Sequence record: KC690136 | Origin: Escherichia phage JES2013 | Length of the DNA: 64,000 nt | Reading direction: 5' to 3' (one strand) | Part shown: positions 2,491 through 19,026 of the stretch, piece by piece | How positions within the stretch are numbered: position 1 is the stretch's first letter | Layout of the letters: each line of letters starts with the position of its first letter | The notes under the pieces: generated by a model | What the model was told of the DNA's origin: nothing | Databases searched by the model: none | What the model saw: the letters and a program-made list of their open reading frames with translations, nothing else | Made by a program: the position numbers and the translations under genes

Positions 2491-2517
2491 AATAGAAAAT
2501 CCCCGCCGAAGCGGGGG
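2491..2517 (-). terminator. rho-independent terminator, hairpin CCCCGC-CGAA-GCGGGG plus U-tract
   Basis: Perfect GC stem with CGAA loop, followed on the minus strand by ATTTTCTATTT. Lies between the convergent-free gap of ORFs 2530..2910 and 1980..2480. Confidence 0.6.
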
Positions 2518-2919: not shown

Positions 2920-4104
2920 TTAAGCTTTAGCCAAAATGGCGCTAAACTCTTCACCAAACTCTTTTACAATCTTCATCAGGTTTGGGTATGCTTTGATCAG
3001 CTGAGCAACGATCTTGTCACGACCTTTACCGATAAGCAAGGCATTTCCTAAGGCATTAGGTTTCATCATCGCCATAAAGACTGAAAATACAAAATCTCGG
3101 TTCTCGTCCTTGAAGTTTTCCCAAAGGAAATCGAGAAAGTTTGCCACACAGCTAACAAGATCTTCGTCGGAGATACTTGCATTTTCCATCATATTACGAA
3201 TAGCGATGCAACCTTCAGATCCAAGAATCCACAAGATGTCTGGCTGTTTAGGACCTACGTATTCTTTGCAACCTCCTGCCATAATCCGACCGATTTCCGG
3301 TAAGTTGCGTTTCTTGGTGTGGTAAGTCCAGATCTCTACCGCTGCAGTGTGACCAATAGCACCTTGCAGAAGAACACGGGCCATAGCGTCAGAAATAATA
3401 CCGCTGTCAAAATCGTGCAAGATATCAGATGCAGCAACCCAAGATCGCGGTGTGGCAAAAGATGGACAATTAATCTCAGCCATGGCCTCATAATTATCGA
3501 TAGCTGATGGAACTCTTTTCAGATATCCAATTACAGAGGAGTGCACCCCATTAAGGAATGCGTAGTCCTCAATAAACACCTCTGCATTGCTTGTAACCTC
3601 TACAATGATAAAACGGTTAGCCAGAGGGGCTTCGAGCGCCGAAAGAACCGCACCATCTGTAGAACGGTTACCAGCAGCCACAAAAACAGAACCCTTAGGG
3701 AATGCATAGGTACCGCACTTGTGGTCAAGCATAATTTGCATTGCAACCTTTTGCAGGTAGTTATCTGCATGAGTGAGCTCATCCAGAAAGATAATTCCGC
3801 TCCAGTCAGGATCCGCAGGCCAAAATTCTGGAATTGCAAACACTGTACGTGTAGTTCCATCCGCTTCTACAGGGATAGGTAGCCCAGATAAGTCGGCAGG
3901 ATCTTTATCTGACAGTCGCACGTCAACAAGGTTGTCATCTCGCTCACCGAACATATTATCAGCGATCTGCTTCATCACCTGGCTTTTACCCACACCCATT
4001 GGTCCCAAAATTAGGACAGATCGGCTATGACGTTGGGCAAACTGAATAATAGCTGGCAACTCACGGACAGTGATTTGACCACTTTCGAATACGTTTCTTG
4101 ACAT
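2920..4104 (-). CDS. MoxR-like AAA+ ATPase (AAA_5 type)
   Basis: 394 aa. Walker A LILGPMGVGKSQ, Walker B IIFLDELTHA, sensor region VFVAAGN. Single-AAA domain of MoxR/CbbQ/CobS type. Confidence 0.7.
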   Translation of the reverse strand: MSRNVFESGQITVRELPAIIQFAQRHSRSVLILGPMGVGKSQVMKQIADNMFGERDDNLVDVRLSDKDPADLSGLPIPVEADGTTRTVFAIPEFWPADPDWSGIIFLDELTHADNYLQKVAMQIMLDHKCGTYAFPKGSVFVAAGNRSTDGAVLSALEAPLANRFIIVEVTSNAEVFIEDYAFLNGVHSSVIGYLKRVPSAIDNYEAMAEINCPSFATPRSWVAASDILHDFDSGIISDAMARVLLQGAIGHTAAVEIWTYHTKKRNLPEIGRIMAGGCKEYVGPKQPDILWILGSEGCIAIRNMMENASISDEDLVSCVANFLDFLWENFKDENRDFVFSVFMAMMKPNALGNALLIGKGRDKIVAQLIKAYPNLMKIVKEFGEEFSAILAKA

Positions 4105-4373
4105 TAGTAAAAGTCCTCTACTTGTGTGTAAGTGTTTTCAAAGTTTTCCAAAACAGATATCACATCGGATCTGTCAATATCATACGTGACTCTCCAGTTG
4201 TACGCAACCCTTTCTGCTGTTGCCTCTTCTGGCGCTAGTCGTCTGCTGGCATAAAAGAGTGTTGGAGTACACTTTCTTGCTTGCCCTCTAACTTTCCCAT
4301 AATAATATCTGTGAATATCTTTGTCAAAATTTAACTCTTTTTCTGCACGAAGTTCATATTGCTGGTATAACAT
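4104..4373 (-). CDS. hypothetical protein
   Basis: 89-aa ORF, start overlaps the stop of the upstream gene (translational coupling). Confidence 0.4.
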   Translation of the reverse strand: MLYQQYELRAEKELNFDKDIHRYYYGKVRGQARKCTPTLFYASRRLAPEEATAERVAYNWRVTYDIDRSDVISVLENFENTYTQVEDFY

Positions 4374-4417
4374 CTCTACTACTCCTTAAGCAGCATCCTT
4401 GCCGCCATTCCTGCCCA

Positions 4418-4798
4418 CTAAAATGCAGTCCGAATCCAGACAAGGTTCTTATCTGCCCAATCATAGAGGCAAGTCATTGCACTATTGAATTGCTCACACG
4501 GAGGATAATCTTCTTCCATCTGGCGCATAGCAGAGCCTTGTGGGTAAAGCTCCCGTGCTGCAAACCACGCATCGTAGTCATCCACGGTATCGAAGTAGTA
4601 TACAACATCCTCCAACTCAGGATCGAACTTTGAACTATCAGGATCCAGTTGTTCAGGGAACTTGGAGCGTAACTTGCCAGCCACAATACTTGCCAACTCG
4701 CTAACATGCTTATTGTCCCACTCCACTAGCTTCCCGTCTTCAGTGATGCGTCCTAACCACTGATCATGAAGGTCAACTGTTGTCTTCCACTGAGCCAT
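4418..4798 (-). CDS. hypothetical small acidic protein
   Basis: 126 aa, rich in D/E; early operon position. Confidence 0.45.
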   Translation of the reverse strand: MAQWKTTVDLHDQWLGRITEDGKLVEWDNKHVSELASIVAGKLRSKFPEQLDPDSSKFDPELEDVVYYFDTVDDYDAWFAARELYPQGSAMRQMEEDYPPCEQFNSAMTCLYDWADKNLVWIRTAF

Positions 4799-4800
4799 TA

Positions 4801-5058
4801 TCAGTCCACCTCTTCTTCTCGTTGTAGTTCAAGATACCCGTAGGTCTGGACATCTTGAAGGGTGTGGAACTCCCCCTCTGCCGCTAAGGCACGAACAACT
4901 TGGCACAAAACCTTATGAGGAACTTCATCCAAACCTAGATTCAGTGCAGGAAACACCTTATCTAAGTCAACAAAATAAACGAACTGTAGCTCACCAGCTT
5001 CAAAAGGTGTATCTTCAATAAACATCTTCTCGGCATTAGTCAAGATCTGCACTTTCAT
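4801..5058 (-). CDS. hypothetical small acidic protein
   Basis: 85 aa, acidic C-terminus REEEVD. Confidence 0.4.
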   Translation of the reverse strand: MKVQILTNAEKMFIEDTPFEAGELQFVYFVDLDKVFPALNLGLDEVPHKVLCQVVRALAAEGEFHTLQDVQTYGYLELQREEEVD

Positions 5059-5435
5059 TATTCTACCTCCTCTTCTTTTTCTTCGGCATTAGTTTCATGG
5101 CTACCCCACTCGGGAGTTTCCACCTCGATAGTAAACTCACGCACTACACGGTAATTGCCCATGAAGCGCTCTACTTCGTCAAGGCTTATGGAGAGGCCAT
5201 TGGCAACCAGGTCTGCAGCACCCTCTTCTACCAGGTAGTCCAGATTGGCTTCCAGAGCCTCAGGTTCAAACCCTGTCAATGCAATCAGATAACCTTCCCC
5301 TTCATCAGGGAGGACAATACAGCCCAATTGATTTTCTTTAAAAAGGCAGTGACCATCATTATTGATTGGGTGTTCATTGCAGTAAATAGCTGCACGATAA
5401 GTAACTTTAGACATCGGTAAGGTCTCCTTAGGCAA
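5058..5435 (-). CDS. hypothetical small acidic protein
   Basis: 125 aa, acidic tail NAEEKEEEVE; overlaps neighbours by 1-8 nt. Confidence 0.45.
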   Translation of the reverse strand: MPKETLPMSKVTYRAAIYCNEHPINNDGHCLFKENQLGCIVLPDEGEGYLIALTGFEPEALEANLDYLVEEGAADLVANGLSISLDEVERFMGNYRVVREFTIEVETPEWGSHETNAEEKEEEVE

Positions 5436-5706
5436 TTGTCATTTTACATTCTTGAAATTTTAACACAAGACGGTGATTGTGTCTAGTGTCTAAAAAGATT
5501 TTTTCAACCATCAGGTACACGGTATAACCGTCCATCTTGTTGACAACAAAATCTCCAGGGTAAGGGAGAGTGTCCCCTGGGCTGGGAAAACATAACCCGC
5601 TCAGAAAGGCATCGTCAGTGGTGGACTTAATAGATTTCCACACACTGTCTGCCTGAACATGCTCACCGACGTAATATACATTACCACATGCCTTCATCAT
5701 AGTCAA
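5428..5706 (-). CDS. hypothetical protein
   Basis: 92-aa ORF in the same operon. Confidence 0.4.
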   Translation of the reverse strand: MTMMKACGNVYYVGEHVQADSVWKSIKSTTDDAFLSGLCFPSPGDTLPYPGDFVVNKMDGYTVYLMVEKIFLDTRHNHRLVLKFQECKMTIA

Positions 5707-6602
5707 ATCCCCGCATAAATTAAACTTGTATCAGTATACTTCTTTAACGGGTAAATATCCTGTCCGTAAATGTAGTCATTAAACACCTCATCTACCCAAA
5801 GACTGCATTTATACCCCATCATTTCTAAAACGCCCATCTCTTCATCAGTGAATTTATCACCACTCTTGCAGGATGTCAATACCTCATTTTGTACTCTTGC
5901 CAGTTCAAAAATGTTGTTAGCAATGTCACTATTAACGATCAGGTATTCACCCAAAGGGTGTGCGGCATTAAAGATGCACAGTGGGAGGTTGACGTAATAG
6001 TCCCCAGGTGTATAGAAATTGTTGAGGTCCTTCACCAGAACATTCTTATCAGTCACTTCATTTATAACATCGTGCATATCGCACATCTTTATATGCTTGA
6101 GGATTCCATCTCCCATCACAAAATAAAAACTTGCTGAGATACTCTCGGCATAGATCTTACTGGACCCGTTGTAGTTGTATTTTACGCGAATACTCACGGG
6201 AGTTTTTCCTGTCGCGTTAGCCATCATCCAAAGGAACGGAAGTTCAAACTTCTCTTCTGAGGAAACAAAAGGTGAAGTTGCCAGAGATCGGAAACCTCCA
6301 GAAAAGTTGAAAGTCACAGAACCGCTCCGGCGGTATGATACCGCGTATTCTACTTTTATATCGACATACCCGTTGGAATAGGTGTGTCCTTCATTATCTA
6401 AATATGTCCACTTATCAGACCCAGATACCAATCTACGCTCAATAACCTTCATCACTATAGGAATTAGTGGGTTGGTACAAACCGCTTTTGAAGTAGCTTT
6501 AGCATCTAAAGCCTCGTAAATTGCAGAAAGGATGTCTCCAGCTGAGAGATTGGTTGTTATATCCTGTTGCCACCGAGTACTAAAACTGTTAAGATTTGCC
6601 AT
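5703..6602 (-). CDS. hypothetical protein, first gene of leftward early operon
   Basis: 299 aa. AGGAG lies 9 nt upstream of the ATG, and a strong promoter lies immediately upstream. Confidence 0.55.
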   Translation of the reverse strand: MANLNSFSTRWQQDITTNLSAGDILSAIYEALDAKATSKAVCTNPLIPIVMKVIERRLVSGSDKWTYLDNEGHTYSNGYVDIKVEYAVSYRRSGSVTFNFSGGFRSLATSPFVSSEEKFELPFLWMMANATGKTPVSIRVKYNYNGSSKIYAESISASFYFVMGDGILKHIKMCDMHDVINEVTDKNVLVKDLNNFYTPGDYYVNLPLCIFNAAHPLGEYLIVNSDIANNIFELARVQNEVLTSCKSGDKFTDEEMGVLEMMGYKCSLWVDEVFNDYIYGQDIYPLKKYTDTSLIYAGI

Positions 6603-6642
6603 GAGTGAGTGCTCCTATGTTGGTTTTCTTTTGAATGGGTGC

Positions 6643-6671
6643 ACTATATCGGAGATTTAGAGTAAAGTCAA
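6643..6671 (-). promoter_or_regulatory. sigma70-like early promoter (TTGACT - 17 nt - TATAGT)
   Basis: Read on the minus strand: TTGACTttactctaaatctccgaTATAGT, followed by AGGAG and the ATG at 6602. Confidence 0.6.
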
Positions 6672-6684
6672 CACGTTTTTGATG

Positions 6685-6713
6685 TTGACATCTGTTGAGA
6701 CAATTGATACGAT
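6685..6713 (+). promoter_or_regulatory. sigma70-like early promoter (TTGACA - 17 nt - TACGAT), divergent partner
   Basis: TTGACAtctgttgagacaattgaTACGAT. It lies inside the first 35 nt of tracked ORF 6679.., so the real start is probably downstream. Confidence 0.5.
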
Positions 6714-6744
6714 TTCTTCACTTACAGAGCACGAGAGACAACTC

Positions 6745-7722
6745 ATGAATCTTGAAAAATATTATACACCAGAAGAGTTAGAGCGCTTGCTCAAAAAATA
6801 TAGACGCAAACAGAATAACGCACGGAAACGAGATATAGAGTTCGACCTGTCGTGGGAAGAATACCTCCTATTTGGTAAAAAACTTTTAGGGGAGGGGGTA
6901 TGCGACTACACCCTTATACCTTTCGACATGCACACAGATGAGAACGGACTGGGAAATCCTTTCTACCCATCTTTGGAGCGTATAGATGATGAAGGTCCTT
7001 ACGCAATTGACAATTGTTGTGTGGTAGGGTTGAGGTGCAATGCTCTGAAAGACTGTCTGGTAGATAAAAAGACTGCAATCCTGATTAAAGACAAAACTGA
7101 TCGAAAAATTGTCCAGCAGATGATGCTCCACCTGAGCGAAGAGCGTATGGAGAAATTGAAAGGTGATTATACTTTTGAAGATTTCATCTTGCAATACGGG
7201 ACAGAAGAAGATAAACTAGCACTATTTGACGAAGAGGAAGAAGATATGTCACCGATGCAGGATTTTAAAAATTTCATGGCTGATCGTGCAGCCAACAAAC
7301 ACATTTCAGACATCGTAAACGAGACTGTGACAGAAGAAATTGAAGAACAGACCTCTGAAGAAGAAAAAGAGCCTCAGGAGGTTGAAGAGGAGATTGCAGA
7401 AGAGGTTCCTGCACTGCCTGATGATGTTGAGATTGCTAAGGCTTACACTTTCTATTGTCAAACGTTCTACGATGCAGGTATGAAAGTTGATCTGTCGTTC
7501 AGCCAATTTAAGAGTTCGTATATTCGCAAATGCTGTGCTTTAACTGGTGAACGTCTCGGAGCTGGACTTAAACCACTGTTGGTGACCGACTGGAATAAAG
7601 GTTTCACTAAAGGAAACTTTATGGTAGTATCTCCAATTATGGAGAAAGCTATGACAGATCTTATGAAGACCACCCGCATGACAATGACCGAGTTGGCAGG
7701 TATTTTCAAACACGTTAAATAA
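6745..7722 (+). CDS. hypothetical protein with two degenerate HNH/EndoVII-like segments and an acidic linker
   Basis: Tracked ORF is 6679..7722; start trimmed to Met-23 (MNLEK) because the promoter overlaps the tracked start. Segment LERIDDEGPYAIDNCCVVGLRCNALK resembles an HNH motif with the histidines replaced. Confidence 0.45.
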   Translation: MNLEKYYTPEELERLLKKYRRKQNNARKRDIEFDLSWEEYLLFGKKLLGEGVCDYTLIPFDMHTDENGLGNPFYPSLERIDDEGPYAIDNCCVVGLRCNALKDCLVDKKTAILIKDKTDRKIVQQMMLHLSEERMEKLKGDYTFEDFILQYGTEEDKLALFDEEEEDMSPMQDFKNFMADRAANKHISDIVNETVTEEIEEQTSEEEKEPQEVEEEIAEEVPALPDDVEIAKAYTFYCQTFYDAGMKVDLSFSQFKSSYIRKCCALTGERLGAGLKPLLVTDWNKGFTKGNFMVVSPIMEKAMTDLMKTTRMTMTELAGIFKHVK

Positions 7723-7727
7723 TGACA

Positions 7728-7755
7728 GGGGCCAATGGCCCCTTCTGGAGTTTTA
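7728..7755 (+). terminator. hairpin GGGGCC-AAT-GGCCCC plus U-rich tail (terminator or attenuator)
   Basis: Perfect 6-bp GC stem right after the stop at 7722; the tracked ATG at 7735 sits in the loop. Confidence 0.4.
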
Positions 7756-9216
7756 ATGGATAGCAGAAGTTCAGAAATCATTGCCTCACAGAAAGATGAT
7801 GCCCTGAGAATGTTGCAGGCTGCACGTATGTATCTCCTTGAAAAGCTGCCGTTTTATGGCACACTACTGTCAGGGTTGCAGTTCGTAGAAAACCACACAT
7901 GGTGCTCCACCATGGCAACCGACCATAAACGCATCTATTACAGTCCTGAGTTCATTATGGGATTGGCTGATGAACGCAAGGCTATTCTTAAGGCTTCTCT
8001 AACTGACGAGCAGTTTGAGATGGCTGAAGTTTTCTATTCCCCAAAATCTGTGAAAGAGGTGGCCTTCCTTCTGTCACATGAGGTGGGACATATTATCTGT
8101 GATCACCTGGTCCGTGGTAAAAGCTTTGAGCCGGAACTGTTCAATATTGCTTGTGATCACGTTATCAACACAGGTCTTGTGGTTGACTTTAGCAAGCCCC
8201 CTTGTGTTTTCTTCCCGAAGGGGAAAAGCACTACGTTCGTGAAAGGTAAGCCTTTTGGATTCTTAGCCAGCTGCTACTGCGACATGAAGTTTCATGGATG
8301 GATTGCTGAGAACGTCTATGCAGTTCTTGATAAGCAAAGAGATCAGAATAACGGTAAAAGTAAGAGCGGTAAAGGTGAGAACTCTCAAGGAGATAAGCGA
8401 CAAACCGATGATCACATGAGTGGTAACGGTGGCACCAGTGATGATCTTGGAAAGGCTATGGGGTATGATCAGCCACAACCTGTAATCAGTCAATCTGATA
8501 AAGATCAGGCCATGCAGGACTCTGGCGATATGCTGGAGGCAGCAATGCAAGCTTCCGGAGGCCGTTGCCCTGAGGCGGTTCGTGAGTTTGTCAAGAATAG
8601 AGGTAAGCCTGTAATCAATTATATAGACATCATCAAGCAACGCATGTTGTCTAAACGAAAGGCTGAACTGACCTACAGAAAACCTGGTCGCCGATCTGGG
8701 TCTTTGACCAGCACAATGCGAAAAGTTGGGGCTATAAACAAGAACCAGCACGTTATTGTTCCTGGTCGTAATCCGGAAAACACCATAGATATTGTGGTAG
8801 CTTTAGACGTTTCTGGCTCGATCTCTCAAAGAACTTTAAAGAAAATGTTCAATGAAATCACCGGATTGTGCAATCTGTATAAAGAGTTTAAGGTTACAAT
8901 GTTCTGTTGGTCAACCGAGATTGGAGAGGTCAAAGTATACACTCGCGGCAACATAGACGAGATGATCAACTATGAGGTCCACTCAACATGGGGCACAACA
9001 GCTGCTTGCGTGTTCGAGTATCTGGATGCCAACATACCAAATGCAAAAGATGTCATCGTCCTGACCGACCTATACTTTGAGCATAACTTTGAACAAAAGG
9101 CTGTTGACAACAAGTGGAAAAAGTACGATACTTTATGGGTTCTCACCGAAGGGTATAATAAAAATTATATCCCGAGCTTTGGGAAAACTGTGGAATTAAT
9201 CGAGTACGCCAAGTAA
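7756..9216 (+). CDS. two-domain protein: N-terminal putative zinc metallopeptidase (HExxH) plus C-terminal vWA domain
   Basis: Tracked ORF is 7735..9216; start trimmed to the in-frame ATG at 7756, which has GGAG upstream. Motifs LSHEVGHIICDH and ACDHVIN, then vWA MIDAS-like VVALDVSGSIS. Confidence 0.7.
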   Translation: MDSRSSEIIASQKDDALRMLQAARMYLLEKLPFYGTLLSGLQFVENHTWCSTMATDHKRIYYSPEFIMGLADERKAILKASLTDEQFEMAEVFYSPKSVKEVAFLLSHEVGHIICDHLVRGKSFEPELFNIACDHVINTGLVVDFSKPPCVFFPKGKSTTFVKGKPFGFLASCYCDMKFHGWIAENVYAVLDKQRDQNNGKSKSGKGENSQGDKRQTDDHMSGNGGTSDDLGKAMGYDQPQPVISQSDKDQAMQDSGDMLEAAMQASGGRCPEAVREFVKNRGKPVINYIDIIKQRMLSKRKAELTYRKPGRRSGSLTSTMRKVGAINKNQHVIVPGRNPENTIDIVVALDVSGSISQRTLKKMFNEITGLCNLYKEFKVTMFCWSTEIGEVKVYTRGNIDEMINYEVHSTWGTTAACVFEYLDANIPNAKDVIVLTDLYFEHNFEQKAVDNKWKKYDTLWVLTEGYNKNYIPSFGKTVELIEYAK

Positions 9217-9222
9217 GAGAGG

Positions 9223-13497: not shown

Positions 13498-16400
13498 TTA
13501 ACGAGAAAAGGTTGCGTAGGCTTCTAGACGATACTGCTGGTCACCAGGGAACATAACACCTATAGAGGCTGTCCCTAGAATCCTGCCTTCCTTTCCAGAC
13601 TCCATTCTGAACCCTACCCATCCTGAACTCCTTGCAGCCTCGATGTTGTCGCTATACCCGAAAGTGGCAAGATCGTCAACACCAGCCCCAAACAGCAACT
13701 GAAGCTGACTTCTCGGAAGCCCTATAATTTCAGGAATATACGCACCAAAGTACACCATCTGCCCTACCTTAGGACCGCTGCCGTACTCCATCGGTTTGCT
13801 TGTAGAGAAAGTCTTCATACCAGAAGTACCTGCCGGATTAGGGTATGCCCCGTTTGTTGCTGTACCTATCCACATTCTCCACTGTGGTGCCATCTGTTTG
13901 ACAGTAAAAGATGTTGAAGACGTTTTGCGCCCTGCATCATCAGTAACTACAAACTTTATGGTGACATTCCCAGTAGCTTTAAATGTTACCAGTCCTGTGG
14001 TGGCATCCACTGTTGCAATGTTGGTATTACTACTTTCCCAAGTCTTTCTAATCCCGGCTACGTTGGAAGGGGTAATAGAAGGTTCCTGCATCTGCAGTTT
14101 ACCACCAACAATCCCTATGCCGTTGCCCGGATTATACAGCACACCAACCTCGTCTATAATGTTCCCTGCTTTGAGACTATACTTCCTTGAGAAGTTGTAA
14201 GTTCCGTTATAAGTGTGTGTCCCTGAGAAGGTGACATCTGCTTTTCCGTAAGAGATGCAAACCAAAGCATACTTCCTGTCAGGCAACGTTGCTCCCGTCT
14301 CTGGGTGAGTTTTACCAACCTGGAACACGCTGGGGTCAGTAGAATCGTGGCTATCGCTGACAGAGCTTGGACCACCCATCAATTGAGGTAAGCAATTCCT
14401 TACCCACGTCCAGTTATTATCGCTAGAGAAGTCAACAGCCAGATCAAATACAACCCACTCATTTGGCTTCCATACTGGTGTTGCAATAGATTTACCTACG
14501 CCACCTCCTTGGAGTGTTGCCGACTGTTCAGTGATCAGGGCCGCATAGGCCAGAGTTCCTAAACTCAAAGTCTGGCTTGCTGTCCTCACTACCTTAGAAT
14601 CAGCATCTGTGAAGTTGTTGATGATCTGGAATGTGCCATAAGTGTTTTTACAGGTAATTCTGGCGTTCAGCGTGTCAATCTTCCTCACATCTGCCATGGC
14701 AGTGTTAGACACAGAGAAGTCAGAAGCTTTAGCTGAGTTTGCCGCAACAGCAGGATCAACGTTAAGAGTTGCGTTGAACTGACAGGCAGGGGTAACCAGC
14801 AGCTTGTTATCACCTATTTGCTTCCATGAAATACTTTGGACAGGTAGATTCCATTTAATACCTGAGAAAACTTTAGCAACCCTTGGCCCCAAAGCTCCAG
14901 TCCTGTTGTCTTTACAGCACATAGACATGGTGATCGTTGACGGAGTTGCCTGACCAAATAATTGCTGTGCTTTTGCAGAGGACATAGTGTAGAAATTGTC
15001 CTTAACAAACTCATCAGCGGCTAAAGATCCATCAGCCCTCCACCACTGAACCTGATACCCTGTTTTGTCCCAACCACCGACCTGCTTCAAGTCCTCCCAG
15101 GAGATTTCTAGATCCCCAGTGGTGGGGTTGATTGCAGCAGTTCCCGGTGTTCCGGGTGACCACAATGGAATATCGAACCACGCTGGTTTAACCGACTGCA
15201 CTGCGCTGGGGCCTATTGCGGCAGCAAGTTGCTGGCCCATCAATACGCGAGCATCTTTCACCAGACCCCACTCGATCATAGACCCAGAGTAACCTTCTTT
15301 CTTGTAGGCTGAGGATCCGTTCAAATGGATGAGTCGGCTTGTGCCAAAGTTATGTGCTCCACCACCGTTGTCGTCTGCAAAATTGGTTATGATTCTATCC
15401 CTGATATTTTTCCATGCCCTGCCCCCAATCTCGTAGTCATGGTCATAACATCTTTGCAGTGTTGTCCAGCAAATGATCGCCATCCTTCTACCATCGCTGA
15501 AGCCAAAGGCCTGATCGTTAAGCTCTCTCCACAAGTAGCAGTTGGTGGTCCACATGGCCCTATGAATGTTAAACCAGTTTATAGATTTGGCTGAGTTGTT
15601 CCACTGAGTCCCAGGTAATTCAGGCCATACTGCATTAACCAGCATGTCTTCTGTTCCTGCATCAACCAAGAACCCTCTCACCTTCTTACCCATGCCTACC
15701 CTATCTTTTGCAATCCAACTGCCAAACAATCTCAGTTTTGGACCGTAGACAACATCTTCCGGATGCTCAAAAGAAATATATTTTAGGTATATTGTAGGGT
15801 CACCATAGGTGCCATCACAAACAGCTTTGTGCATGTTCTCGCCAAGGTCTAGACGAAGTCCTGTTACAACTTTAGACGTGTCGGTGAATTTGTCTGTTAA
15901 ATCAAACTCATACCACCACCAACCTGCACCCAACAATACTTTCTTACAACGCTGTGCATCTGTATCAGATATTCTCTTATCACCTGCAAAAGGTGAGTCA
16001 GCAAACTGATAGTGCAGAGCAATCTCAAAAGGATGTGTGGATGTCCCGTTTTCTGCAAGAACTTGTTTACCTATTAAGTCGCACTTAATGATCATCACAA
16101 CACGTTTGTACCCGTTTGTTACCGGAATTTGCATAGACATGGATGTCCCGTCCATGTTTGATCTCAGTGCAGTCATGATGATATAAGGGTCAACGGCATT
16201 GCCCAGAGTCTCAGGACCGGGGATTATCTTATACTTCTTGACCTGCCCCATGATGTAGTCACTGGCGTAAGTTGCCTCATTCAAGCAAGATCCTCCACCA
16301 GGTAACTCACCAGGTCCCCAGAAAAATGCGCCGTAACAGTTGTAGAACCACTTGTTAGGATCGTATTTATTCTTGAAGGTCTGAACCTCGTTGGCCTGTT

Positions 16401-19026
16401 TTGTCAAGAAAACCTGCGTGTCTGTGAAGATTGCAGGGTTTACTTTCGCCTGTCTTGGAGGGTAACCTGTAGTTTGGTTAAACCACAAATTACAAGAGTA
16501 ATCCCTCATATAGTCATAATCAGAGTATTTGTTTACATCTTCGTTCCAACACATGTTTAGGTTGGTACCGCCCATGCATACAATATATTCTGCGACATAC
16601 TTATCACTTCTGGTAGGAATACCTATGAACCATCTGTTAACAGGCTCATCCCAAGCTGTGCGCTCATCTTTAACGCAGATAGCAATCCAGTCATGTGTTC
16701 CTGTTTTCTTGCACACATCTCGCTTCATACCATAGTAGAACTCTTTAGTATTCGGCTCAGGTGCATTTATCAGGTAACTCCATGCCTGATTTGCATAAGT
16801 TCCATTGGTGCGTGGATCATGATCAAAGGCATACATGATGATCCTTTCCCCACCAAGATGTTCGCCAAGAGTAACTTTGACATTCACATCGCCGTAACCA
16901 TTGCGAACAACATCCATATTATCAATAGAGATACCTCTGGGCGTGTAGGCAATTTTCAGCGAGTTATCTTCACTAGTGCCGCCAAGTGTAATCCCTATGT
17001 TGTTTGTTGTCCCGTCGACATATCTTACTGTAGCTTCCCAGCGTATTCCGAAATATCCTGCATCATGGCTGACAATTTTCAGTGTACGAGCTCCCGGGTG
17101 AGGTTTTCCAGGATCAGGCCAAGGGTCTGGGTGTTCGTGAACAGTCAACGACGTTCCGTTCTGCTCATTAACCTGCAACATTTTACCACCCTTGCCATTA
17201 GGATTGAACTCCCACAAGGCTTGTGTTTTCACAATATTGTCATACGTGGCGCGTCTTTGATCGTAGATCTCTTGGGTCACATCATAAGTGACTGATCCAG
17301 CATCCATTCTGTGGAGTCTGACCATATACGATGTATCCCCTTCTACTGCAGGCTGGGTCCCATTCAGCCCAAAGTATACAGTATCGTTAACATGGAACTG
17401 CTTGTTTCTACCAACGGTATGCCACTTGCCGTTGGACGGATACGCAGGAACTATAGTGTTCCAGTTCAAAGTCCTTGTCGTATAGGTTCTTCCAGTGCCA
17501 TGCTTGTCATGGTAGGTGATCTTGATAGAATACAAACCACGTCTGTTGATGTTACGGTTATACTGGGTGACCACAACTTCGTTAGCACCACCATGGTTCC
17601 AGTTAGTGGAGAACTGATAGTTTGCATCTGTAACAACAGTGCCTGCAGCATTTACCAACTCAATCTTGTCAATAATGAACGTAGCACCCTCCGGCTGAGG
17701 TTTCAATTTCATCTTGACAGTATCTCCGATGTAAATGTTGCTAACATTGCTCACACCATTGACATCAAAGATGTCTTCGATACCCCAGCTATCTACCGGG
17801 ACATTTTTATACCAATTCTCCGGAATCTCTGTGAACCCTTGGCTGTTAAGTCTGCCGCCAAAGAGGTTATTAGATCCTGAAAAACTACCACGTGGTATTC
17901 CTGACCACCAAAGCTTTCCATTTACCACACAGAATGTGCCTAAGAAACCTTCCCTGTGGATCCCTTGAAAATAAACGCTTTCTGTCCAGCTTACTGGCTC
18001 TGTCTGTTCAACAAACTTAGCTGTTGCCAGCGCTCTGTAATGAATAAAATTGGCCCTAGGACTATTATTAGCAGATTGAGCACCAATATCGTTACACAGG
18101 TTTCTGGAGAAACCACGGTACTGTTTTGTACCATTATTGAAGAAAATTCCACTAGTCCCGTACCCGCGAGCCATAATTACTTCATGGGTATAGGTGATGT
18201 TAAGGCTTCTCCACGTGTCGTCACCCCAAACATCCTGACCATAAAACACATTAACAAGCTGTTGGTCATCAGGTTTGTGCATCCTTTCTGTGGCTATAAT
18301 TGCACCATTAGGTCCACACATGAACCCTTTCCATGTCTCGCCCACCGGGATGCCTTTAAACTGGTCAAGAGTCACATGCTCGGCTGGATAAACTAGTGTG
18401 TTTTTGCTGTTATTTCTTAAGAAATCGTAACCTGCAATCCAGAATCCGTTAGGACCACCAAAAATAACCGAGTTGTCATGAACTTCACAATTAATTCTTG
18501 GATTTTTCCAAGGACCTGTCTCTGGACTTTCAGATGTTTCACCGATCTTAACTGGAGTAGCGTGTTGACTTTTGTCAACATGAAGAGAGCCGTAAGTATT
18601 ATTGCCAGAGCCGTACAGGTGAAGCATACCATCAGCCTCTGGTGCAGCAATTACCCACACTGTATTGTTTACGCCACCCATTACTTCAACAAGTCTCTCA
18701 GGATGGGTGTCCAAATGCAACCCTGTTACGATCTGTTCCGGCAAAGGTGTCCACTCTCTGACACAAACATCGTTTCCACCTGCTGCCTCCGATCCGATAA
18801 GACCAGCTGTGCAACCAATATAGAAAAATTTATTATCGAATGTGCGGATTACAAATGCACGGTCAGCTCTCCAAACATGGTCTACGTTCCAAGCTGCCTC
18901 ATTAGGATAGTTTATTGTATCAAGATCTCCAGTCCGACACTCTCCGAACCTATTATAGCCAGTAATATTAAGCTGACCATCATCAAAAAGTATATACATA
19001 GGATACTGTGTTGCTTGTACCATCAC
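13498..19026 (-). CDS. giant tail-fiber / host-range structural protein with C-terminal Ig-like (Big_2-type) domain
   Basis: 1842 aa. Segment IRKTWESSNTNIATVDATTGLVTFKATGNVTIKFVVTDDAG near the C-terminus looks like a bacterial Ig-like domain. Last gene of the late tail module. Confidence 0.5.
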   Translation of the reverse strand: MMVQATQYPMYILFDDGQLNITGYNRFGECRTGDLDTINYPNEAAWNVDHVWRADRAFVIRTFDNKFFYIGCTAGLIGSEAAGGNDVCVREWTPLPEQIVTGLHLDTHPERLVEVMGGVNNTVWVIAAPEADGMLHLYGSGNNTYGSLHVDKSQHATPVKIGETSESPETGPWKNPRINCEVHDNSVIFGGPNGFWIAGYDFLRNNSKNTLVYPAEHVTLDQFKGIPVGETWKGFMCGPNGAIIATERMHKPDDQQLVNVFYGQDVWGDDTWRSLNITYTHEVIMARGYGTSGIFFNNGTKQYRGFSRNLCNDIGAQSANNSPRANFIHYRALATAKFVEQTEPVSWTESVYFQGIHREGFLGTFCVVNGKLWWSGIPRGSFSGSNNLFGGRLNSQGFTEIPENWYKNVPVDSWGIEDIFDVNGVSNVSNIYIGDTVKMKLKPQPEGATFIIDKIELVNAAGTVVTDANYQFSTNWNHGGANEVVVTQYNRNINRRGLYSIKITYHDKHGTGRTYTTRTLNWNTIVPAYPSNGKWHTVGRNKQFHVNDTVYFGLNGTQPAVEGDTSYMVRLHRMDAGSVTYDVTQEIYDQRRATYDNIVKTQALWEFNPNGKGGKMLQVNEQNGTSLTVHEHPDPWPDPGKPHPGARTLKIVSHDAGYFGIRWEATVRYVDGTTNNIGITLGGTSEDNSLKIAYTPRGISIDNMDVVRNGYGDVNVKVTLGEHLGGERIIMYAFDHDPRTNGTYANQAWSYLINAPEPNTKEFYYGMKRDVCKKTGTHDWIAICVKDERTAWDEPVNRWFIGIPTRSDKYVAEYIVCMGGTNLNMCWNEDVNKYSDYDYMRDYSCNLWFNQTTGYPPRQAKVNPAIFTDTQVFLTKQANEVQTFKNKYDPNKWFYNCYGAFFWGPGELPGGGSCLNEATYASDYIMGQVKKYKIIPGPETLGNAVDPYIIMTALRSNMDGTSMSMQIPVTNGYKRVVMIIKCDLIGKQVLAENGTSTHPFEIALHYQFADSPFAGDKRISDTDAQRCKKVLLGAGWWWYEFDLTDKFTDTSKVVTGLRLDLGENMHKAVCDGTYGDPTIYLKYISFEHPEDVVYGPKLRLFGSWIAKDRVGMGKKVRGFLVDAGTEDMLVNAVWPELPGTQWNNSAKSINWFNIHRAMWTTNCYLWRELNDQAFGFSDGRRMAIICWTTLQRCYDHDYEIGGRAWKNIRDRIITNFADDNGGGAHNFGTSRLIHLNGSSAYKKEGYSGSMIEWGLVKDARVLMGQQLAAAIGPSAVQSVKPAWFDIPLWSPGTPGTAAINPTTGDLEISWEDLKQVGGWDKTGYQVQWWRADGSLAADEFVKDNFYTMSSAKAQQLFGQATPSTITMSMCCKDNRTGALGPRVAKVFSGIKWNLPVQSISWKQIGDNKLLVTPACQFNATLNVDPAVAANSAKASDFSVSNTAMADVRKIDTLNARITCKNTYGTFQIINNFTDADSKVVRTASQTLSLGTLAYAALITEQSATLQGGGVGKSIATPVWKPNEWVVFDLAVDFSSDNNWTWVRNCLPQLMGGPSSVSDSHDSTDPSVFQVGKTHPETGATLPDRKYALVCISYGKADVTFSGTHTYNGTYNFSRKYSLKAGNIIDEVGVLYNPGNGIGIVGGKLQMQEPSITPSNVAGIRKTWESSNTNIATVDATTGLVTFKATGNVTIKFVVTDDAGRKTSSTSFTVKQMAPQWRMWIGTATNGAYPNPAGTSGMKTFSTSKPMEYGSGPKVGQMVYFGAYIPEIIGLPRSQLQLLFGAGVDDLATFGYSDNIEAARSSGWVGFRMESGKEGRILGTASIGVMFPGDQQYRLEAYATFSR

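Follow-up and report, generated by a model that had tools for sequence, protein, structure and literature searches.

The window analysed here is a stretch of 64,000 nucleotides from Escherichia phage JES2013 (record KC690136), a Vequintavirus of 138 kb, and is collinear with rV5. Two genes on opposite strands, gp4 and gp12, lie 3.6 kb apart, and a divergent intergenic gap, the only one, carries a sigma70-like promoter for each direction. The features of the locus are as follows.

2501..2516, minus strand: terminator-like hairpin past gp3, CCCCGCTTCGGCGGGG, then a T-rich tail
2920..4104, minus strand: gp4, predicted MoxR-class AAA+ ATPase of 394 aa, homologue of N4 gp24
4104..4373, minus strand: gp5, an ORF of 89 aa; its stop codon and the start codon of the ATPase gene overlap (TAATG)
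4299..4327, minus strand: promoter-like site within gp5, TTGACA-17-TATTAT, 195 bp upstream of the ATPase start
4418..6602, minus strand: gp6 to gp10, intervening leftward genes
6643..6671, minus strand: leftward sigma70-like promoter (gp10 through gp4 to gp3), TTGACT-17-TATAGT
6685..6713, plus strand: rightward sigma70-like promoter (gp11, gp12 and onward), TTGACA-17-TACGAT, with an extended -10 TG
6745..7722, plus strand: gp11, Srd-like (degenerate HNH-like), phrog_3118, with matches to Srd anti-sigma and sigma70-decoy families
7727..7743, no strand assigned: GC-rich hairpin in the gp11-gp12 gap, AGGGGCCAATGGCCCCT; the GGAG RBS of gp12 comes next
7756..9216, plus strand: gp12, DUF2201_N putative zinc-peptidase domain, disordered linker and DUF2201 vWA domain, 486 aa from ATG 7756, homologue of N4 gp25

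The six minus-strand ORFs that separate the pair encode 89, 126, 85, 118, 90 and 299 aa, with pI values, in the same order, of 5.4, 4.3, 4.3, 4.2, 6.2 and 5.0. An earlier note on this DNA, made from the sequence, had described them as six small, mostly acidic ORFs; the acidity stands, and the smallness applies to five of the six. Conservation of gp5 is limited to L002 and L010-L012, which are close relatives; PHROGs labels it 'ATPase', though the sequence is devoid of ATPase features. No Pfam matches were obtained for gp6 to gp10, among which gp6 is the sole gene kept in distant relatives of the rV5-related lineage, and the 'fucosyltransferase' label of gp10 found no profile support in Pfam or NCBIfam. 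The transcription unit of the ATPase may end at the hairpin past gp3; the rV5 annotation contains no hairpin matching 2501-2516. The hairpin at 7727-7743 may act as an attenuator or RNA-stability element. The rIIA and rIIB genes are close to the pair in both rV5 and N4-like phages.

The protein that the earlier note called HNH-like is gp11. Its HNH-likeness is degenerate and its affiliation is Srd-like. The best start, ATG 6745, agrees with the AlexBoehm annotation. The order Srd-like gene followed by DUF2201 gene is retained in L002 and L010-L021, and gp11 is always directly 5' of gp12 in this lineage.

The coordinates and motifs previously given for the ATPase ORF proved right, with Walker A at LILGPMGVGKSQ and Walker B at IIFLDELTHA. 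gp4 matches phrog_1297 (2e-110), and rV5 gp4 is already annotated as a MoxR ATPase. No Pfam AAA model reached its gathering score with gp4 itself (AAA_5, 16.7 bits against a cut-off of 22; AAA_3 not listed). Homologues at 34% identity carry AAA_3/AAA_5 (PF07726, PF07728), so that membership of the MoxR class follows by transitive homology. Residues G37, G39, K40 and S41, D108 and E109, N146/R147, R164 and R220 are invariant among 35 homologues. With motifs assigned by position in the alignment and the model, the Walker A, Walker B, sensor 1, arginine finger and sensor 2 residues are all intact. The AF2 model of gp4 (pLDDT 85.5) yielded NorQ (E = 2e-8), CbbQ2 (6l1q), cso-CbbQ (5c3c) and a MoxR-like protein (2r44) as top Foldseek matches, and the profile of the ATPase family matches the AAA_5 modules of midasin at 1e-9. 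Motifs, modelled fold and coupling to a vWA gene thus identify gp4, as a prediction, as a MoxR-class AAA+ ATPase.

The second ORF of the earlier note was likewise correctly placed, with its motifs HEVGHIICDH and VVALDVSGSIS. For gp12 the ATG at 7756 is favoured as the start, as a GGAG lies 6 nt upstream and homologues begin at the equivalent Met; an alternative ATG at 7735 falls inside the GC-rich hairpin. Pfam recognises DUF2201_N (PF13203; 99.4 bits, cut-off 23.2) at residues 95-321 and the VWA-like DUF2201 domain (PF09967; 43.5 bits, cut-off 26.4) at residues 353-488. The putative zinc-site residues H115, E116 and H119, together with H124 and D141, are invariant in 37 sequences, as are all residues of a complete MIDAS motif (DxSxS...T...D); the ATPase motifs, HExxH and MIDAS residues do not vary across homologues at 21-87% identity. 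Proteins of the rV5 type have an insertion of ~40 residues ahead of HExxH. Structure comparison shows that the C-terminus has a vWA fold matching the VWA domain of NorD, and the layout is NorD-like, with an N-domain, a disordered linker (residues 209-235) and the vWA domain. A direct sequence search of the PDB with gp12 returned nothing, and no match to the N-domain was present among the top PDB structure matches; weak profile matches in the HExxH region were to minigluzincin MJ1213 (0.014), BepA (0.09) and HtpX. As no solved peptidase matches the N-domain significantly, a peptidase activity is suggested by motif conservation. A literature search for 'DUF2201' found no functional study in phage or cell, and one for 'rV5' with 'MoxR' found no paper.

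Both boxes of each of the back-to-back sigma70-like promoters proposed in the earlier note were found in a promoter scan, and each promoter agrees with the consensus at 10/12 positions. An inverted repeat at 6667-6689 comprises the two -35 boxes. The same bidirectional promoters were published for rV5 in 2013 (PMC3606486), and the rightward one is P11 in the rV5 annotation. Since the region holds 39 promoter-like sites as compared with 24.5 +/- 5.3 in shuffled sequences, a lone 10/12 match is weak evidence; in favour of these two are their place in the sole divergent gap and the earlier report for rV5. In the more distant relatives (L013-L021) a near-consensus promoter lies directly 5' of the Srd-like gene; the leftward promoter, by comparison, is not conserved in position in the distant relatives of the rV5-related lineage. 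The leftward promoter is 2.5 kb from the ATPase gene, and the site within gp5, at 11/12 positions a joint best in a 14-kb scan, is a candidate promoter stronger than the divergent pair. Judged from promoter consensus alone, gp4 and gp12 would be expressed early in rV5. Neither Vequintavirus transcriptomics nor CRISPRi-ART literature yielded expression or essentiality data for the two genes.

The earlier note regarded the pair as not assignable to a characterised system, yet it is the homologue of N4 gp24/gp25 and resembles a MoxR/metallopeptidase-vWA pair of jumbo phages. In tblastn searches gp12 matched gp25 of the N4-like phage Jura (E = 6e-14), gp4 matched N4-type gp24 (E = 1e-17 to 4e-21), and many Schitoviridae were matched, including features annotated as gp25 and 'N4 gp24-like'; HMM matches to Jura gp24 and gp25 were also obtained. 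The gp25-type proteins combine DUF2201_N with DUF2201, an architecture as in gp12. N4-like phages share 14 core genes, gp24 and gp25 of N4 among them; both are transcribed in the middle period (PMC4193335), ahead of late expression, as is presumed for the rV5 pair. In N4-like phages these genes sit next to each other in one orientation, with dCTP deaminase and thymidylate synthase genes behind them, whereas the rV5 pair is divergent. For jumbo phages of group 2.2, Iyer et al. 2021 (PMC7824862) gave the same domain description, a MoxR ATPase and a vWA co-chaperone with an N-terminal metallopeptidase; the likeness to that pair is by description, and both gp4 and gp12 match the jumbo phages GAP32 and KP13-7 and Asteriusvirus-like genomes. 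That study casts the pair as a feature of jumbo-phage virion assembly, whereas here it is split over early-type operons in a 138-kb phage.

Cellular relatives are numerous. Bacterial chromosomes (e.g. Sulfurivermis fontis, Thiodiazotropha) carry two-gene cassettes, AAA_5 then DUF2201, that keep all motifs. The bacterial DUF2201 proteins are 21-27% identical to gp12, and 5876 clusters among 8000 scored candidates belong to the family at E <= 1e-10. In these cassettes the genes are adjacent, beside genes for thioredoxin, Hsp15, Lon, ferrochelatase or an M48 (BepA-like) peptidase. NorQ/NorD and CbbQ/CbbO are MoxR-vWA enzyme-maturation systems with only 16-23% identity to the rV5 pair; NorD, whose target is nitric oxide reductase, lacks the peptidase motif that gp12 has. 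The mechanism of NorQD is described in PMC9976466 and PMC13036017. A further MoxR/vWA pair, p618/p892 of the Acidianus two-tailed virus, has, in the account given in PMC7824862, an experimentally supported chaperone role; this pair, from an archaeal virus, functions in the growth of tails outside the cell and lacks a peptidase domain, and it too is likened by description. Membership of the vWA-MoxR ternary conflict systems (VMAP, iSTAND, FtsH, beta-propeller) defined by Kaur et al. 2020 (PMC7159879), which link a third conserved component and a variable effector to the pair, was rejected, as no conserved third gene was found across the phage and cellular contexts examined and PADLOC gave no significant match.

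Related loci were gathered with the ATPase alignment as query. The proposal that the two proteins are genuine partners is supported by their co-occurrence: all 80 informative loci with the ATPase, from phages and cells alike, contain the DUF2201 gene (80 of 80); ten loci lacking it were truncated contigs and were left out of the 80. Within the rV5-related lineage the pair is present in 15 of 15 loci, down to 43% identity. The DUF2201 gene is immediately downstream on the same strand in 65 loci, and the divergent split is found in the other 15, all of the rV5-related lineage. The split is therefore a lineage-specific rearrangement of the usual state, ATPase then vWA gene. With the genes on two operons, stoichiometry is not set by co-translation, which is odd for obligate partners. 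The pair is of an already known kind, with the divergent split the only unusual element here, and no novel type of system emerges from it.

We favour, with a probability of about 0.6, the reading that the pair is one MoxR/vWA-peptidase machine serving a conserved core step of phage development; that it is an accessory for counter-defence on particular hosts is unlikely. Strict conservation and the chromosomal cellular cassettes favour such a core chaperone/protease role over an accessory one. Also in keeping with the favoured reading, neither gp4 nor gp12 figures in the named set of rV5 virion proteins. gp4 would form a MoxR-type AAA+ ring, and gp12 would be a vWA adaptor that also bears a zinc-peptidase domain. 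By analogy to NorQ/NorD, the physical complex would comprise one gp12 docked via its vWA domain onto a gp4 hexamer, with the MIDAS site binding an acidic patch on the target protein and ATP hydrolysis tugging the disordered linker that joins the vWA and N-terminal domains. By this pull the target would be remodelled and the HExxH peptidase brought into place or released for cutting, which would make proteolysis ATP-gated. The pair would be produced ahead of the late genes, from sigma70-type promoters in rV5 and as middle genes in N4, and would most likely act, in the early or middle period, on a protein complex of phage or host, by maturing or remodelling it or by controlling its quality.

A rival possibility, that the pair is a virion-assembly chaperone and processing protease that folds or assembles head or tail parts and trims structural proteins, is rather unlikely. 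It has been proposed for the jumbo-phage pair by analogy to tail development in the Acidianus two-tailed virus (PMC7824862, section 3.4.5), and some neighbours in GAP32 and S-TIM5 carry structural labels (head completion protein, tail fibre, 'virion structural protein'), with an Hsp20 gene directly upstream of the pair in S-TIM5. A deletion in 0305phi8-36 that removed a MoxR-like and a vWA-like gene, a pair that may or may not be of the DUF2201 type, along with two tRNA genes and six functionally unassigned genes, left the phage viable with a growth defect. Against assembly, the rV5 pair lies in units with sigma70 promoters, far from and opposite to the late structural block, which starts at 13.5 kb, and the N4 pair is transcribed with middle genes among replication genes. 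Neighbours elsewhere are mostly replication and nucleotide-metabolism genes, and cellular homologues occur in genomes that have no virion to assemble. The host-takeover or counter-defence module suggested by the earlier note, in which an ATP-driven protease would clear a host factor or immune protein early, we consider improbable. The early-type promoters, the constant position of gp12 behind a gene of host-takeover type in the rV5-related lineage and the nearby rIIA/rIIB genes, which protect against prophage exclusion (rV5, N4-like), are compatible with takeover, and a host protein could plausibly be removed by a peptidase whose MIDAS site binds proteins. Known anti-defence genes tend to be accessory and to vary, but the pair is strictly conserved over families with very different hosts (E. 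coli, Pseudomonas, roseobacters, cyanobacteria), and its chromosomal copies adjoin the housekeeping and stress genes listed above rather than defence islands. The PADLOC defence-system models gave no significant match for the pair, and counter-defence gained no positive evidence.

In several lineages unrelated to one another (27 IMG/VR loci, L003-L005, a roseophage, an E. coli N4-like phage, GAP32 and S-TIM5), a thymidylate synthase gene (ThyA in some, ThyX in others) follows the pair 1-2.7 kb downstream in the same orientation, and dCTP deaminase or dUTPase genes adjoin the pair in N4-like phages. Together with the thioredoxin gene upstream in bacterial cassettes, and with characterised MoxR/vWA pairs being mostly enzyme-maturation factors (PMC9976466, PMC13036017), this would suit a maturation factor that assembles or activates a dNTP-synthesis enzyme or complex. 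The association is recurrent without being universal and is absent from the rV5-related lineage, L022-L023, Aeromonas 2L372X, MIJ3 and Pag-Yong1, so that this is only a minor rival, and a very improbable one. It may merely reflect a common early/middle gene module, and the invariant peptidase motif would be left unexplained. CobS/CobT is, like gp4/gp12, an AAA+/vWA pair. Cobaltochelatase-like auxiliary metabolic genes, as in many marine phages, were the ordinary identity that the earlier note had set against its own proposal; their probability is close to nil. gp12 bears the DUF2201_N HExxH domain, the nearest structures to gp4 are NorQ and CbbQ, and no CobS, CobT or CbbQ_C model matched in Pfam or NCBIfam, by which this identity is effectively refuted.

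A more specific and quite doubtful version would make the pair an ATP-gated site-specific protease whose target is a host protein or a component of phage dNTP synthesis or replication, with the protease subunit controlled jointly with the Srd-like takeover gene in the rV5 lineage. Such a protease would account for the recurrence of thymidylate synthase, be it ThyA or ThyX, just downstream in unrelated phage lineages. If true, it would constitute a new widespread early/middle step common to N4-like, rV5-like and jumbo phages. The pair is among the few gene sets common to N4-like podoviruses, rV5-like myoviruses, several jumbo phages and thousands of bacterial genomes. Because rV5 gp4 and gp12 correspond to N4 gp24/gp25, genetics in tractable coliphages (N4, Bas Vequintavirinae) can address the whole family. 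The present assignments also put right widespread mis-annotations of DUF2201 proteins as 'HNH endonuclease', 'DNA repair ATPase' and 'anti-sigma factor'.

The ATPase (gp4) and the DUF2201 protein (gp12) of the window belong to a known and widespread phage and cellular module of uncharacterised function, and the main features of the pair are already present in public annotation and the literature. HMMs were built for both families and searched against 90 sources, comprising the window, 80 IMG/VR loci found by ATPase alignment, and other loci from phages and bacteria. The DUF2201 gene was present in all 80 sources with 1.5 kb or more of sequence downstream of the ATPase gene; the 10 that lack it are contigs ending no more than 1.1 kb away. 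This result strongly supports the partnership that the earlier note had proposed for the two proteins. On the same strand, the DUF2201 gene follows the ATPase gene within 400 bp in 61 sources and within 1 kb in 4 more. In 15 sources (the window, rV5, AlexBoehm and 12 contigs with ATPases 43-73% identical), it occupies the opposite strand, 3.4-5.1 kb upstream of the ATPase gene. The gene order is the same in 15 of these 15: DUF2201, Srd-like, strand switch, variable small genes, ATPase, with SleB and rIIA beyond. Because the split is confined to these sources and the two genes are adjacent in the next relatives (35% identity, 142-149 kb), the arrangement is an old rearrangement in one lineage, not a separate system. 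Co-directional pairs are also interrupted in Pseudomonas phage MIJ3 (5149-7909; four genes inserted, an HNH homing endonuclease among them) and Planktothrix phage Pag-Yong1 (5786-8022; five small genes), and therefore separation is tolerated in other lineages too. Only the lineage-specific split, in which gp12 is always linked to the Srd-like gene, sets the rV5-type pair apart.

By sequence, the window is assigned to Vequintavirus because the 7-kb region shares 99.7% identity with E. coli O157 typing phage 14 and 99.2% with phage rV5, to which it aligns base for base starting at rV5 coordinate 1, and because 120 phage records match it at ≥90% identity. In the rV5 record (DQ832317), ORF4 already carries the name 'MoxR ATPase' and ORF11 the name 'anti-sigma factor, Srd-like'; a sigma70 promoter, P11, is annotated there at 6685-6713. 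The features of the window in and around the pair are as follows.

2920..4104, minus strand: gp4, the ATPase
4104..4373, minus strand: gp5, which overlaps the ATPase start (TAATG)
5703-6602, minus strand: gp10, 299 aa
6667-6689: 23-bp inverted repeat GTCAACA-N9-TGTTGAC, containing the -35 hexamers of both divergent promoters
6745..7722, plus strand: gp11, the Srd-like protein
7727-7743: perfect 7-bp GC hairpin lying between the Srd-like and gp12 genes, immediately upstream of the ribosome-binding site of gp12
7756..9216, plus strand: gp12, the DUF2201 protein

Checked against the sequence, the observation in the earlier note is correct overall: the gp4 and gp12 ORFs, all four motifs quoted for them, and both divergent sigma70-like promoters are present, each promoter matching the consensus at 10 of 12 positions. 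The intervening ORFs, described there as six small and mostly acidic, are indeed mostly acidic, although gp10 is not small, and the protein called HNH-like is instead the Srd-like gp11. Their predicted transcription start sites fall near 6720 (plus strand) and 6636 (minus strand). As they lie back to back, the promoters could compete for RNA polymerase or have a common operator. Relative to gp11, the message for gp12 could be reduced or stabilised by the hairpin. A further candidate promoter (4327-4299; 11/12) lies inside gp5. In distant relatives (L013-L021), a perfect 12/12 sigma70 consensus, TTGACA-16-TATAAT, is found ~300 bp within the Srd-like ORF (e.g. L014 6520-6493); it is oriented toward the DUF2201 gene and may be an internal promoter for this vWA-peptidase gene.

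Taken alone, gp4 falls below every Pfam AAA threshold (top AAA_14, 20.7 bits; AAA_5, 16.7 bits). Against the phage ATPase family phrog_1297 it scores 2e-110, and its relatives number in thousands, those ~34% identical having AAA_3 and AAA_5. The Walker A, Walker B, sensor 1, arginine finger and sensor 2 positions are all invariant in the homologue alignment. The AlphaFold model (pLDDT 85.5) is nearest to NorQ, CbbQ2 and cso-CbbQ, all MoxR-class, and the family profile detects midasin AAA_5 modules. gp12 scores well past the Pfam thresholds for DUF2201_N (99.4 bits) and DUF2201 (VWA-like; 43.5 bits). Its layout of N-domain, linker and vWA is that of NorD, with a zinc-peptidase motif conserved in the N-domain. 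The start is ATG 7756, preceded by a GGAG ribosome-binding site; a rival ATG at 7735 lies inside the GC hairpin. gp12 is a single intact 486-aa ORF in the window and >100 relatives. A one-base frameshift in the rV5 record (7756-9217; window 8972-9216 compared) breaks it into ORF12 and ORF13, and is probably a sequencing error or strain mutation.

A tblastn search matched gp12 to 670 phage records and gp4 to 811, drawn from the same phage groups: Vequintavirinae, related 145-kb myoviruses, Schitoviridae, jumbo phages (GAP32/Rak2-like, Asteriusvirus-like and PA5oct-like), cyanophage S-TIM5 and others. In the N4-like phage Jura, the matched genes are those labelled gp24 and gp25. The 14 core genes of N4-like phages include N4 gp24 and gp25 (vWFA) (PMC4193335), both of them middle transcripts of unknown role (PMC4193335; PMC2784036). 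The same cassette, AAA_5 then DUF2201, occurs in bacterial chromosomes, adjoining thioredoxin, Hsp15, Lon, ferrochelatase or BepA-like peptidase genes, and this cellular family is very large. In many lineages the pair is followed, 1-2.7 kb downstream, by a thymidylate synthase gene (ThyA in some, ThyX in others); none was found nearby in the rV5 lineage and several other lineages examined, and the linkage may merely mark a common early or middle module.

In the NorQ/NorD model, a vWA finger reaches into the pore of the AAA+ protein, the target is bound at the MIDAS site, and the adaptor's linker is remodelled as ATP is hydrolysed (PMC9976466, PMC13036017). The NorD-like layout of gp12 and its conserved zinc-peptidase motif lead us to propose that gp4 and gp12 would associate physically as an ATP-driven remodelling machine, in which the adaptor gp12 would also cut the target. 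This scheme, drawn by analogy with NorQ/NorD, is the best-supported model.

The earlier note read the pair as a plausible host-takeover or counter-defence module. Several facts favour a core developmental role over counter-defence. The pair is probably transcribed early here, from sigma70-like promoters, and its N4 counterparts are middle genes. Genes for replication or nucleotide metabolism make up most of its neighbours, gp4 and gp12 do not figure among the virion proteins named for rV5, and the pair is strictly conserved. An alternative function in virion assembly is possible; for the same architecture in jumbo phages, Iyer et al. 2021 suggested virion assembly and proteolytic processing (PMC7824862).

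Several existing labels in these phages deserve comment. The DUF2201 protein (phrog_1314) is wrongly called 'HNH endonuclease' in many phage records, as in the PHROG name itself, and elsewhere 'DNA repair ATPase', 'anti-sigma factor' or 'Zn-dependent hydrolase'. The gp5 family, phrog_13164, carries the label 'ATPase' and has no ATPase features. Many records call gp10 a 'putative alpha 1-3 fucosyltransferase', a name that seems unsupported because gp10 has no match in Pfam, NCBIfam or PADLOC and its PHROG is of unassigned function. Sixteen unannotated MG0656xx records titled 'Campylobacter phage' (host given as Campylobacter jejuni) share 96-98% identity with E. coli rV5-like phages over the region analysed here and appear to be mislabelled genomes or contaminants. 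Just past the bidirectional terminator, the late block starts with an 1842-aa ORF (13498-19026, minus strand), whose sole rV5 label is 'cell wall surface anchor' hypothetical protein.
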